64,000 nt of DNA from Octopus vulgaris (Eukaryota), in the NCBI GenBank assembly GCA_951406725.2, contig OX597814.1, forward strand, positions 65,348,001-65,412,000, given 5' to 3'. A program made the position numbers and the translations under genes. The notes under the pieces are model-generated. The model was not told the origin of the DNA and made no database searches. It saw only the letters and a program-made list of their open reading frames with translations. Position 1 is the stretch's first letter, and each line of letters opens with the position of its first letter. Of the stretch, positions 34,095-63,498 are shown one piece after another.

Positions 34095-34137
34095 TACTTT
34101 TGACAATCTTTTACCAAAGAGTGAAACCGGTTAAGTA
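34095..34137 (+). ncRNA. Minimal HHR, U3-A8 variant, at a PLE-like 3' end
   Basis: tactt TTGACAA tcttt-tacc-aaaga gt GAAAC cg GTT aagta, then AATAAA. A related decayed copy lies at about 15420-15490. Confidence 0.6.
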
Positions 34138-34175
34138 AATAAACATCGTTTAAATTGCATTTTCAAACCTTTTTT

Positions 34176-34228
<53 letters not shown>

Positions 34229-34362: not shown

Positions 34363-34382
34363 GCTAGTTAACAAGAATTGTA

Positions 34383-36365
34383 TTGGCATTTATCATAAAT
34401 GCCAATACAATTCTCAACAAAAGAGAATGGAACGACCTCATCAAACTAAGAGAAGACAAAACAATAACAATTAAGGAGGCAGATAAGGGCAACGCGATAG
34501 TAATAATGAATACAAACAATTATAAAAATTTAGTGCTATCCCTATTAAGAGATGAAACGTATTATGAAAGGGCCCAACAGTATAACCAGCAAAAAATAAT
34601 GCAAAACCTTAGGACATTAATCAACACATACCAAGAAGGACTCACGAACAAGGAGTATGAATACATCACTAACTTCAAATGCAAATCGAGTTTGTTCTAT
34701 GGTATCCCTAAGGTACACAAAAGCCAAACCATTAGAGAAACGTGCAAAACATCCACCGACACACTCATCAAAATCCCTTCACCAAATGATCTTAAACTAA
34801 GACCGATAATAGCAGGGCCAGCATGTGAAACTCACCGCCTCAGCAATTTCTTAGACACACTTCTTAAACCTTTCCTAAAACACATCAAAAGCTACGTAAG
34901 AGACGATATAGATATGCTCAACCACCTCCCTAAAACAGTCAATGAGAAAACCCTTCTAGTATCATTCGACGTAGTTAATCTTTATTCTAACATCCCTCAC
35001 AACCTAGGAATAGAAGCAATCACCTTCTGGCTGAATAACTACCCCTTTGAACTCCCAACTCGCATAAACAAAGACCTTATAATAGAAGGACTTAGATTCA
35101 TTTTAGAGAACAATTATTTTATTTTTGACAATGATTTCTACAGGCAAAGATCGGGAACAGCGATGGGCACGCGTACTGCACCATCTTTCGCCAACCTAGT
35201 GATGGGATACCTCGAGAAAATACTATACCGGATGACACTCGAGAAATATGGCAACACCTTCGCCACCTATATCCATAACAACTGGAAAAGATACCTCGAT
35301 GACTGTTTCATCATCTGGGACAAAGGCATAGAGAAACTTGAGGAATTTAAAATTCTATTAAATGGAATAAAGGACAATATACAATTCACGATGGACCACA
35401 ACGAAAAAGAATTACCATTTTTAGACATCCTCATTAAGATAACCGGCAACAAAATAGAGACAGATATCTACTATAAACCGACAGACTCTAAACAGTACCT
35501 ACCCTTTGATTCATGCCACCCACGACACACTAGAATGAATGTCCCTTTTTGTTTAGCTAGAAGGATTTGCACCATAATATCAGACACAAACACCCGACAC
35601 ACACGTCTCCAGGAACTTAGAACCACACTCACAAATAGAAACTATCCACAGCCCCTAATAGACAGTGCAATCCAACGGGTACTTAAATTAAGTATAGAAG
35701 ACCTGAGACAAACAAAACCAAAAAAGAAAGAACAATTAAAAACCCTTCCCTACATCTCTACACACAACCCACTCAACAATGAGGCCTTCAACACCATACT
35801 ACAAAGCACAGCCCTACTAAAGGGAGACCCAAAGATGAACCGGATCCTCGAAACACACACGATCATTAAAAGTAAACGGCAACCAAAATCCTTGAAAAGG
35901 ATTTTAACCCAAGCTACACTGCACTCAACATCAACCACAAAACCAGCAGTTAGAAAATGTGGAAGGCCCAACTGCGGAATCTGTGTCATCTTGAAAGAAG
36001 GATCAGAATTTATACTGGAACAAGGCCACCAGTTCACCATTAGAACAAACTTCACCTGCGCATCAGAAAACTTAATTTACGTCATAACATGCGCAGGCTG
36101 CAATAGGCAGTATATAGGCCATACAAAAAATAGCTTACGTAACAGGATGGCGGTGCATAAATCACAAATTAGAAACCCTGATTACCGCAAAATACCGGTC
36201 AGCGGACACATAGATAGATGTGCTGGAAATGTAAATCCGAAATTTACAACTAACCCGCTCTATAAATTCAGTGACAACGCAACCTTCACACAACGCCAAA
36301 ATAAAGAACTATATTTCATAAAAAAATTTAGACCAAGTTTAAACACCCTGGGCCAGGAATACTAA
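34383..36365 (+). CDS. Penelope-like element ORF: reverse transcriptase + GIY-YIG endonuclease (5'-truncated, no internal stops)
   Basis: 660-aa frame with PLE motifs IKEADKG, FYGIPKVHK, LRPII, LVSFDVVNLYSNIP, GTAMG, RYLDD, LPFLD, YYKPT and HP. The C-terminus has CGRPNCGIC and IYVITCAGCNRQYIGHT (GIY-YIG). The listed start is a TTG inside a palindromic junction, so the true N-terminus is missing. Confidence 0.95.
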   Translation: MAFIINANTILNKREWNDLIKLREDKTITIKEADKGNAIVIMNTNNYKNLVLSLLRDETYYERAQQYNQQKIMQNLRTLINTYQEGLTNKEYEYITNFKCKSSLFYGIPKVHKSQTIRETCKTSTDTLIKIPSPNDLKLRPIIAGPACETHRLSNFLDTLLKPFLKHIKSYVRDDIDMLNHLPKTVNEKTLLVSFDVVNLYSNIPHNLGIEAITFWLNNYPFELPTRINKDLIIEGLRFILENNYFIFDNDFYRQRSGTAMGTRTAPSFANLVMGYLEKILYRMTLEKYGNTFATYIHNNWKRYLDDCFIIWDKGIEKLEEFKILLNGIKDNIQFTMDHNEKELPFLDILIKITGNKIETDIYYKPTDSKQYLPFDSCHPRHTRMNVPFCLARRICTIISDTNTRHTRLQELRTTLTNRNYPQPLIDSAIQRVLKLSIEDLRQTKPKKKEQLKTLPYISTHNPLNNEAFNTILQSTALLKGDPKMNRILETHTIIKSKRQPKSLKRILTQATLHSTSTTKPAVRKCGRPNCGICVILKEGSEFILEQGHQFTIRTNFTCASENLIYVITCAGCNRQYIGHTKNSLRNRMAVHKSQIRNPDYRKIPVSGHIDRCAGNVNPKFTTNPLYKFSDNATFTQRQNKELYFIKKFRPSLNTLGQEY

Positions 36366-36980: not shown

Positions 36981-37413
36981 AAATGAATTCCTCGCTCTTT
37001 CGGAAACATCAATCTTCTGTATTGACCGCTTTCCACCACTTTGATCTGTTTTTTGTATTGAATACGTATCGCCACCGTGGGCCACTGCATCGAACACTTT
37101 GAAATATACTTCAAACTATATATCAACTATACATGAACTATATATCAACTATACATGAACTCTAAGATGTCTGACTCCGTTGTGTATTATAAATGAATTT
37201 CTTGTGTTTGACGGCATGAGCTGTCTCTTTTTATATATAACTTTTTTTGATAAGGTTCATTTCAGGAACTGAAACATGTTATAATGTATATATAAAAATT
37301 AAAAATTGTATAATACAGCAGCATTTTCGAACTTCATTTTTTACAAATATATATATATATGAAAAAACAAGTAAAAAATAGAAAATGCTAAAATAATTTT
37401 ATAGTGAACATTT

Positions 37414-37451
37414 CAGTACCGGTTTCGGTCATTTTGAGACCTTTTCAACTG
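37414..37451 (-). ncRNA. Minimal HHR, U3-A8 variant
   Basis: Minus strand reads cag TTGAAAA ggtc-tcaaaat-gacc GAAAC cg GTA ctg. Confidence 0.68.
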
Positions 37452-44669: not shown

Positions 44670-48320
<3,651 letters not shown>

Positions 48321-60345: not shown

Positions 60346-60616
60346 TTGAAAACAAGGTTGAAAATAATTGTACTCGAATATCAAAAAATAGTGTAATATT
60401 CTTTTCATCACAGCTGCAAAAGTATAACAGAACTGTTATTCAGACTTGTGATATTTTTACAGCTTTAATAAAAATATGAATATATACTTTGGGGAATTAC
60501 ACCACCGCTGTTTAGCCCTAGGAAGCATCGACGCTTCCTGTCGGCTTTGACACATTTCCTGTGTCCTTATATTTGTGAAGGGGAAGCAAGCACCCCCACC
60601 AGCCAAGATTCACACC

Positions 60617-60659
60617 TTAGGACATGCATGTTTCTGGGTCTTAACCCGTCATCAGCCCA
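60617..60659 (-). ncRNA. Type I hammerhead ribozyme at the apex of a rod-like hairpin
   Basis: Minus strand reads tggg CTGATGA c gggt-taag-accc a GAAAC atgcat GTC ctaa. Canonical core, one mismatch in stem I, closed by atatttgtgaagg (60569-60581)/ccttcacaaatat (60696-60708). Confidence 0.8.
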
Positions 60660-61342
60660 TGATAGTGAGATCTGCTGACTGAGGTGCCTGTCTAGCCTTC
60701 ACAAATATATATATTTACAGTGAAATCTATTCACGAGTCTCCGTAATTAGAAGGCATTAGGCAGGAGAAATACCAGCACCAACAACTGCGACCGCAGCGA
60801 CTCATCCAACAATATCCAAGACAACAATCGCAACGGCGGAGGCTGTAGCAGTAGCGGTAACAACGCATCAAACAGCAGAAACACCAGCACCGACAACGAC
60901 CGCAGCACCGGCGTCTGCGTTACGGCCGGAGCTGATGACCACTCCAGCACCCGCAGCACCGAGCTGTCTCTTAAACCCAAGACACGAGATATATAAACTA
61001 CGTCCACATTTCAAATGCTACCTGCTGTGGGCATGGCATCCATCGTTCATCTATTAGGAGCCAACCTAAGGGCGGATATTCCCCATTCGCTCTTCAGGTC
61101 CATAAGATTTCCTCACCGATAATCCGTCCCGTTTAAGGCTCAGCCAGTGCATCTTACTCTTTTGTTAACAAATTAACTGACTGTAACGGTTTTTTACTTC
61201 AAGTTGGAAGGGAGATTATATGCCCACGGCCTTTGGAGTCTGAGATGTCGTCTATAAGGCTAATGTGAAACCATTAGTAAGTCTATGACACATATTTAAG
61301 TTCATGTAAATAAGTATACACACACACATATCACACATATAG

Positions 61343-61406
<64 letters not shown>

Positions 61407-61424
61407 GTATATATATGTTATATG

Positions 61425-61464
<40 letters not shown>

Positions 61465-61859
61465 TATATACATATATATACTTATACATATACATATATA
61501 TATATATATACATATATGTGTGATATGTGTGTATATATACATATATATATATATACATATATATATACATACATATATATATATATAAGGACACCGTGAC
61601 GGTGTCGAGCCTTTCTGGTGACGTCGATGTTCGCCTGGGGCTAAATGCAACAGTAACACCCCCACCACCCTGCCCTGTCCCTAGCCATATTCAGATGGCT
61701 TTAGTCCCTTATGATATCGAGCAGTTACTGTCTATATCTCTTTTAGATAATTATTATTGCTTTCGAACAGATTTTCGAAATCAGCAAATGTATTTTGCTT
61801 GAAAATCTATATATGAATATCCTGCAGAGTGAGAGTTCGTCGAGGAAGCGGAAGCCTAC

Positions 61860-61905
61860 CACACGCCGACGATAGGCAATACACCTTGAAACCATGGTCC
61901 GTGTG
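61860..61905 (+). ncRNA. Type I hammerhead ribozyme (U4C variant), first copy
   Basis: cacacg CCGACGA t agg-caataca-cct t GAAAC catg GTC cgtgtg. Six-bp stem I extended by gaagcggaa/ttccgcttc; palindromic stem III. Confidence 0.8.
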
Positions 61906-62219
61906 TGGTTTCCGCTTCATCGGGGAATTACCTCCCTTTGCAGGATAAGGACACCGTGACGGTGTCGAGCCTTTCTGGTAACGTCGATGTTCGCCTGGGG
62001 CTAAATGCAACAGTAACACCCCCACCACCCTGCCCTGTCCCTAGCCATATTCAGATGGCTTTAGTCCCTTATGATATCGAGCAGTTACTGTCTATATCTC
62101 TTTTAGAGAATTATTATTGCTTTCGAACAGATTTTCGAAATCAGCAAATGTATTTTGCTTGAAAATCTATATATGAATATCCTGCAGAGTGAGAGTTCGT
62201 CGAGGAAGCGGAAGCCTAC

Positions 62220-62265
62220 CACACGCCGACGATAGGCAATACACCTTGAAACCATGGTCCGTGTG
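62220..62265 (+). ncRNA. Type I hammerhead ribozyme (U4C variant), second copy
   Basis: Identical to 61860-61905, 360 nt downstream. Confidence 0.8.
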
Positions 62266-62431
62266 TGGTTTCCGCTTCATCGGGGAATTACCTCCCTTTG
62301 CAGGATAAGGACACCGTGACGGTGTCGAGCCTTTCTGGTGACGTCGATGTTCGCCTGGGGCTAAATGCAACAGTAACACCCCCACCACCCTGCCCTGTCC
62401 CTAGCCATATTCAGATGGCTTTAGTCCCTTA

Positions 62432-62468
<37 letters not shown>

Positions 62469-63498
62469 AAAGCATATATATACATACATACATGTATGTG
62501 TATATCAGGCTATTTATACATGTGTGTGTATTTATATACATATATAAACGTATTTATACAAACAGAGACATATACACCCGCGCGGACGCAGAAGCGTACA
62601 CATATATATATATATGAGTATGAACGCATGTGCGTGTTTGTTTGCCTGAGTATGCGTGTTGTGTGTGTGTATTTGCTGTGTGTGTGTGTCTGCGTGCGTA
62701 CAAACATATTCGGCACACTTAGTACTATCAGTGTTAGGAAGGAACAAAAGGCGAAGACAAATTAATTATATTCAGCTAAACGACTACACGTGTTTTACAT
62801 AATATGAATCAATGTAAGCGTGTTTCGTAGCAATAGTACAATGTGCAAGAAACATGTCCCTATTTCTTCCACATGTGCAGCGTGTAAATATATAAATAAC
62901 AATGTATTTTCGTAGGTGAATACACATACCTACAAATATGATAAAAACATATATAACACAATCGGCATTGAAATATTCTCATAACACACGAGCGCACACC
63001 CACACTCACACACGCACACGTATATATGCGTGTGTGTGTTTGTGTGTGTGAGTATGTATCTGTGTGTGTGTACGACATCTATATATGTAACTATTTTGAA
63101 ATACAAATATATATATATATATATATAATTACATCCACATAAACACATACATATATATAAATTTTGTTTTTGTAAGACACACACCAATAAATTTAAGCAT
63201 ATACCCACACAATCTCCCTCTCCCTCTCTCTCTCACTCGCCCTCTCCCTCTCTCTCTCACTCCCCTTGCCCTCTCTCTCTCTCACTCCCCCTGTCCCTCT
63301 CTCTCTCTCTTACTCCCCCTATCCCTCCCTCTCTCTCTCCCTCTCTCTCTTACATAGACACACACATACAAACACTGACGAACTTATTAGTTCTACCATA
63401 ACTATCTATATATCTATCTTCTGTCTGTCTGTCTATCTAGCTCTGTCCGTCTATATCTCTATCCCTTCGTCTATCTGTCTGCTGTCTGTCTGTGCGTG

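Follow-up and report, generated by a model that had tools for sequence, protein, structure and literature searches.

Two divergent hammerhead elements in a 64-kb window (64,000 nucleotides) of the Octopus vulgaris genome share a short RNA module that forms the 5′ third of a ~175-nt covarying domain, and copies of these elements end at two fixed 3′ sites within and just past that domain. Both elements are non-LTR retrozymes, with tandem monomers of ~350-360 nt in which a type I hammerhead caps a long rod, and their copy ends record reverse transcription of the kind used by Penelope-like elements (PLEs). The module, P1-P3 of a domain that we call P1-P6, may well be a sequence-specific handle for a Penelope-like RT-endonuclease acting in trans, a reading for which we consider the balance of probability even.

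The features are collected in Table 1. A sequence-only reading of the window had placed both modules and the helices that close the rods, and all of its coordinates and letters were confirmed. The minus-strand element is a piece of the 354-nt family-A monomer, cut at both its 5′ and 3′ ends; its 3′ end, at +80 from the module start, is atypical, and P5-P6 and both RT start sites are missing. The family-B array starts at the module start, stops at 3′ site 1 (+133), and is flanked by (TA)n tracts (61337-61587 and 62434-62505). Monomers of these elements are 348-360 nt long and occur in arrays of up to ~10 units; they have no conserved ORF and no LTR, loop lengths shift by 1-3 nt between families, and each unit has a type I hammerhead in which the core, stem II, and palindromic stem III are readable in the sequence. 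Coding constraint on the module was rejected given the lack of a conserved ORF and the loop variation of 1-3 nt. We call the elements animal non-LTR retrozymes and presume that transcription, self-cleavage, and circle formation proceed as in known retrozymes.

Table 1. Positions of retrozyme and PLE features in the window
Feature	Position	Strand	Basis or remark
Family-A retrozyme, partial monomer (full length 354 nt)	60491..60752	minus	sequence, genome copies
Rod with type I hammerhead at apex, family A	60571..60710	minus	sequence, fold
Family-A hammerhead: core CUGAUGA, GAAA	60655-60649, 60634-60631	minus	palindromic stem III; predicted cut after 60621
Module P1-P3, family A	60511..60570	minus	sequence, fold, alignment
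Family-B retrozyme array, 2.4 x 360 nt	61585..62437	plus	sequence, genome copies
Module P1-P3, family B copy 1	61585..61645	plus	sequence
Rod with type I hammerhead, family B	61818..61947; second copy 62178-62307	plus	sequence, fold
Family-B hammerhead: U4C core	61866-61872	plus	stem III CCAUGG; predicted cuts after 61899 and 62259
Module P1-P3, family B copy 2	61945..62005	plus	sequence, fold, covariation
Copy 2 helices P1; P2	61949-61955/61961-61966; 61968-61971/61999-62002	plus	P3 within P2
Downstream part of domain, family B	62011..62109	plus	folds, covariation
P4 long-range helix	62011-62017/62084-62090	plus	encloses P5 hairpin 62043-62060 and 3′-end site 1 (~62077)
P6 hairpin	62097-62109	plus	
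PLE-type tail between fixed 3′ ends of family B (+133, +177)	62077..62121	plus	copy ends
Module P1-P3, family B copy 3	62305..62365	plus	sequence
5′-truncated Neptune-type PLE ORF (RT and GIY-YIG), young family	34368..36365	plus	candidate RT source; 3′ UTR without module

The proposal that two divergent elements share a module holds for the module itself, but homology is not limited to it: the two elements are colinear homologues along the whole ~355-nt monomer (~47% identity). Their common layout was borne out by folding of the rods and of the A module as described and by the alignment of the A and B modules, which scores 65 against a maximum of 28 in 2000 shuffles; the rods align weakly (score 46; shuffle mean 21.8, maximum 62 of 500). 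End-to-end alignment of five full monomers from four groups gives 42-51% identity between groups (B versus F, 66%); conservation is concentrated in islands, namely P1, P2, P6, a spacer hairpin, and the hammerhead core. Judged from these sequences, the module is common to the families by descent, and the elements are not unrelated hosts of one cassette. The pattern TAAGGACAC-N5-10-GTGTC-N1-3-AGCC has 1779 exact matches genome-wide, and two further module patterns have 1201 and 374; the reversed controls have none. A covariance model (R1) built from 14 natural copies, an approach already suggested from the sequence, found further homologues including the young family G. In all, the module is present in ~10 families or subfamilies (A1-A5, B, C, D, E, F, and G) with thousands of copies. 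Family B is also young, with copies 98-99% identical and arrays of up to ~10 units. A search for a third family that excluded the letters of A and B returned 22 matches, all mutated A or B copies, and a pattern scan of metagenomes returned 11, all GC-rich sequence without P1 and judged to be chance. Family B or close variants of it are covered by assembled contigs from sequencing runs that carry the labels of four organisms; one contig of 390 nt returns on itself after 360, which fits a circle and a tandem array alike.

The minus-strand element folds into a rod followed by two hairpins (z of -5.2). The family-B 360-nt unit folds with z of -6.0; P1 forms, and P2 and P3 lose to an alternative pairing in the minimum-energy fold. 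Family A has a canonical core (CUGAUGA...GAAA...UC) and family B a U4C core (CCGACGA); a search of the whole window against Rfam gave no matches at the gathering threshold, and neither hammerhead was called. Stem III is palindromic in 133 of 151 copies. It is this stem that provides the palindromic site; the earlier suggestion that the module is a dimerization palindrome is not supported, as the loop of P3 is not a conserved palindrome. A short palindromic stem III is the dimer feature of PLE-associated hammerheads (PMC4209133), and the likeness to that system concerns the ribozyme only; here, unlike in that report, the hammerhead sits at the tip of a 60-70-bp rod, and several families have U4C or U3-A8 cores. 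The U4C core was found in B and A2. A UUGAUAA core, in which U3-A8 replaces the C3-G8 pair, occurs in families C and G (L267, L177, and L201) and also at the 3′ ends of the Neptune-type PLE (L241-L266).

The rods are also insertion sites for another element. In families A, E, and F, the 5′ arm of the rod that carries the hammerhead is interrupted ~120-130 nt upstream of the module by LINEs of Tx1/L1 type, with target duplications of 14-20 bp (L091, also L084/L085; L092; L093; L296/L135; L141; L293; and L294). The copy at L294 is near full length, with endonuclease and RT; those at L091, L092, L093, and L296 are ORF1-only pieces of ~1.7 kb. This LINE looks like a retrozyme-targeting retrotransposon, and we found no literature on a LINE inserting in retrozyme rods. 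Elsewhere in the window, a 521-aa frame with RT and zf-RVT (46658-48223, plus strand) is a LINE fragment.

Single-sequence folds together with an alignment of 14 rows define the layout of the domain: P1, a GGACAC hairpin; P2 with the inner hairpin P3; P4, a long-range helix around P5; and then P6. In this alignment (A1), where P2 of families B and F is misplaced by one column, both partners change in 16 of 36 pairs (P1, 1/6; P2, 0/4; P3, 4/6; P4, 7/9; P5, 2/5; P6, 2/6). Covariation is 0.346 against 0.191 in shuffled alignments, none of 500 shuffles reaching the observed value, with the proviso that the 14 rows form three groups and the control ignores relatedness. Pairing is 92% in the true register and 35-49% in slid controls. 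The description of stems that change sequence yet keep their pairing applies to the rod, P3, and the closing pair of P1; GACAC/GUGUC and AGCC/GGCU are otherwise unchanged between A and B.

Parsing of 177 copies at the family level extends the comparison to these stems. Five changes at the level of family or subfamily fall in P1 pairs 1-5 and P2, and every one of them keeps pairing: A-U to G-U in F (9/13), part of B (5/11), and G (34/35), C-G to U-G in F (13/13), and C-G to U-A in G (34/35). The closing pair of P1 is A-U, C-G, or U-A according to family and is open in D. P1 loops of 3 to 8 nt occur, the inverted half-sites are separated by 5 to 10 nt, and the G.U wobbles of the module are compatible with pairing on the hammerhead strand only. 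P1 stem and lead are 94% identical between family groups, and the linker is 30% identical; the module is not uniquely conserved, its scores of 0.55-0.66 comparing with 0.64-0.72 for P6 and the hammerhead core. The words CGUCGAUG, AUAAG, and GGCUAAA, thought to be invariant, are so in A and B only and break in C, D, F, or G: CGUCGAUG is replaced by ACGAUGU in C and D, by CGUUGAU in F, and by GCG(A/G)UGGC in G, and family G has the lead UAAUG and the tail AGCUAAU. Pair-preserving changes across ~10 families, with wobbles confined to one strand, bear out the proposal of a selected cis-element; at the level of sequence comparison they show selection on the domain as RNA. A conserved stem with a loop of 3 to 8 nt would suit a protein handle.

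The ends of genomic copies place the domain in relation to reverse transcription. Of 249 distinct terminal 3′ junctions, site 1 (+116 to +133 from the module start) accounts for 99 and site 2 (+172 to +181) for 100, which leaves 50 at other positions; the two windows were set after the end positions had been seen and cover ~15% of the scored span. A further 36 copies run on. The two sites are ~45-60 nt apart. Relative to the helices, site 1 of A, B, C, D, F, and G occupies an unpaired linker and precedes the 3′ strand of P4 by 8-10 nt; site 2 follows P6. Of the 199 site ends, 100 have a (TA)n tract no more than 40 nt away; of the 50 other ends, 8 do. Inverted 5′ pieces are common, and partial tandems and 5′-truncated copies occur. 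The 5′ ends are scattered, with no single-nucleotide cluster among those mapped; 1 of 117 lies 5 nt or less from the hammerhead cut, where a uniform spread would give 3.6. This rarity agrees with circular or multimeric templates, though by itself it is weak evidence. In PLEs, the segment that separates two internal RT start sites forms the “tail” (PMC11167929; PMC8557442), so two internal 3′ ends with an optional tail are a PLE-type insertion signature of internal starts of reverse transcription. The superfamily is direct genomic evidence of PLE-type reverse transcription from two internal start sites.

At site 1 of family A, (CT)5-19 stands between the 3′ end of the element and (AT)n in 12 contexts (L006, L009, L015, L024, L061, L073, L081, L130, L131, L135, L141, and L143) of 113, a total that includes internal copies; in five of the 12 the opposite flank is visible and is pure (AT)n. 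Such tracts fit an RT that copies a CUCU template repeatedly as it initiates; alternatively, the microsatellites grew later.

The window also holds a PLE of a young family with many intact 781-aa ORFs in the genome. Its CxxC linker, a clade feature described in PMC8557442, marks it as Neptune-type. This PLE inserts at (TA)n, carries a hammerhead-like motif of its own in which the core is of U3-A8 type, and lacks a P1-P6-like domain. Its 3′ ends repeat the two-site pattern of the retrozymes, as 34 short and 7 tailed ends lie ~41 nt apart and enter (TA)n; because it has two ends without the module, its RT does not need the module in cis. In its 3′ UTR (to ~37350, plus strand) the words ATTGG and TGACGTC recur. 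Other PLE copies meet the element with their AT-rich 3′ ends at (TA)n tracts (34100-34180, plus; ~37350-37450, minus), so these tracts collect nested insertions.

Autonomous PLEs were scanned for the module with R1. There was none in the PLE of the window and five further loci, no PLE-borne match in 30 GIY-YIG loci of several families (one of which looks like a host gene), and none in a second PLE clade, of which the PLE ends at 29 loci were scanned. The single match among the GIY-YIG loci, at L255, is a separate retrozyme in opposite orientation. Loci where retrozymes abut PLE pieces were considered as linked units and rejected; they are separate insertions, mostly across (TA)n. The second clade is older and abundant (150 matches scored of 4691 candidates), and L131:419-973 is a C-terminal piece of it. 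Homology to the PLE pLTR is reported for Xenopus retrozymes; for the octopus families, no module sequence shared with an autonomous PLE pLTR was found in ~65 PLE-related loci, a partial sample of PLE families. Absence of the module from the PLE ends scanned is the main result against an RT-binding role.

Among the roles suggested from the sequence, recognition or priming by a PLE RT appears the best supported, by position and by the two-site tail, with the amendment that the start sites lie outside the module, 55-70 nt and 110-120 nt downstream. In an Anolis PLE, the minimal active RNA spans +20 to +172, with the hammerhead cut at +26 and starts at +111-118 (PMC11167929); this segment, which begins near the hammerhead cut and extends ~55 nt beyond the RT start, is hypothesized there to hold a protein-binding motif. 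P1-P6 sits where this minimal RNA does, and its position thus supports a handle. Retrozyme tandems would be transcribed by read-through, cleaved by their hammerheads, probably as dimers via the palindromic stem III, and the cleaved units ligated to circles. PLE protein would bind P1-P3 and P4-P6 of this non-coding RNA in trans, its endonuclease would nick AT-rich DNA, and cDNA would start either in the unpaired linker at site 1, ahead of the 3′ strand of P4, or beyond P6 at site 2; the RT would run round the circle or along a tandem transcript to give arrays of up to ~10 units. The alternative pairing of P2 and P3 predicted for family B would count against a handle, as would the conservation scores of P6 and the hammerhead core, which equal those of the module. 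We advance a bolder version only tentatively, and doubt it more than we credit it: P1-P6 would be the first defined cis-acting domain for animal retrozyme mobilization, the P1-P3 handle would be an innovation of the parasite, absent from autonomous PLEs, that lets circles win PLE protein in trans, and a telomerase-like start in the linker enclosed by P4 would reiterate a CUCU template to yield (CT)n.

P1-P3 could instead be a retrozyme-specific site for a host factor acting in ligation, stability, export, or docking near a translating PLE mRNA, the counterpart of a SINE head, with the RT start set by P4-P6 only. Every autonomous PLE 3′ end examined is without the module, as this would predict, and by eye two short features close to the starts, a YYAC word ahead of site 1 and a CUC/GAG tail hairpin, resemble the Neptune PLE end and P1-P3 does not. 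However, the partner PLE may be unsampled, comparison of four families with Rfam matched neither SRP, tRNA, or snoRNA nor any other model, and ARAGORN finds no tRNA gene in any of seven loci, which leaves no sign of a tRNA- or 7SL-derived SINE head; resemblances to the SRP Alu domain and to hatchet likewise found no Rfam support. We regard a host-factor site as unlikely but a serious contender. An internal promoter, acting as DNA in retrozyme transcription, would explain why letters beyond pairing are kept in P1 and P2, and some family-A copies contain GTTCGATGC, which resembles a B box. The word is absent from B, C, D, F, and G, and Pol III boxes were rejected on that account; moreover, the distance between half-sites ranges over 5 to 10 nt, fixed changes allow G.U pairing on just one of the strands, and metazoan retrozymes seem promoterless according to a review (PMC7761336). 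There is little probability in this explanation.

The module might have no special role, being one of several structural hairpins inherited under general selection for a compact circle. Homology of the monomers from end to end, with several conserved islands, agrees with this, but stem sequence should then drift as it does in the rod, P3, and P4, and P1 keeps 94% identity while its loop and neighbors diverge; we rate this as improbable as a promoter. Least credible is a second, undescribed self-cleaving or ligating ribozyme, a role that had also been suggested. Its stems are conserved in sequence and joined by short conserved letters, and in family B 15 of 61 5′ ends fall at the rod foot (-25 to +15; 6.8 expected). 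Yet these ends spread over many positions, as RT stalling or strand switching at the rod would have it, the excess is weak in F (3/16) and G (8/40), and unpaired positions of the module differ between families; the want of an Rfam match and of a single-nucleotide 5′ cluster tells against catalysis. Models of HDV-like, twister, twister-sister, pistol, and hatchet ribozymes gave no match at E up to 10 in A, B, C, and G, in accord with the earlier impression that HDV, twister, and pistol do not fit; other Rfam matches at that threshold in these families were microsatellite-driven or chance. We consider a second ribozyme very improbable.

The host elements add to a known kind, and neither the ribozyme nor the element class is new. 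Animal non-LTR retrozymes (PMC7229834; 10.64898/2026.07.22.740005) likewise have ~350-nt tandem non-coding monomers, a type I hammerhead, dispersed arrays, and a compact fold, and have been proposed as non-autonomous partners of PLEs; the available text of these sources describes no covarying domain outside the hammerhead and no mapped RT starts, whereas here ~10 families share P1-P6 and two 3′ ends. The 2026 preprint ties retrozymes to PLEs by distribution and pLTR homology and leaves the mechanism open (10.64898/2026.07.22.740005). The Anolis Poseidon PAc PLE (PMC11167929) is similar in its two internal 3′ ends, AT-rich targets, structured RNA between hammerhead and starts, and 5′ inversions; by contrast, the RNA here is non-coding and depends on a partner, its tail measures ~45-60 nt where that of PAc has 30-40 nt, and its hammerhead cut is ~180 nt upstream of site 1, against ~85-90 nt. 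What appears to be new is the conserved P1-P6 domain with mapped PLE-type ends: it was found neither in the literature searched nor in Rfam, that literature likewise describes no cephalopod retrozymes, and repeat libraries (e.g., PMC13282606) may hold the families under another label.

For the recruitment of RT by animal retrozymes, this superfamily offers a covariation series of ~10 families and a bounded domain of ~175 nt, which together make the question testable in the existing in vitro PLE assay. A 2020 review states that metazoan retrozyme repeats show no conserved motif pointing to their partner (PMC7761336); if P1-P3 is indeed a handle for a Penelope-like RT, it would supply that missing signal.
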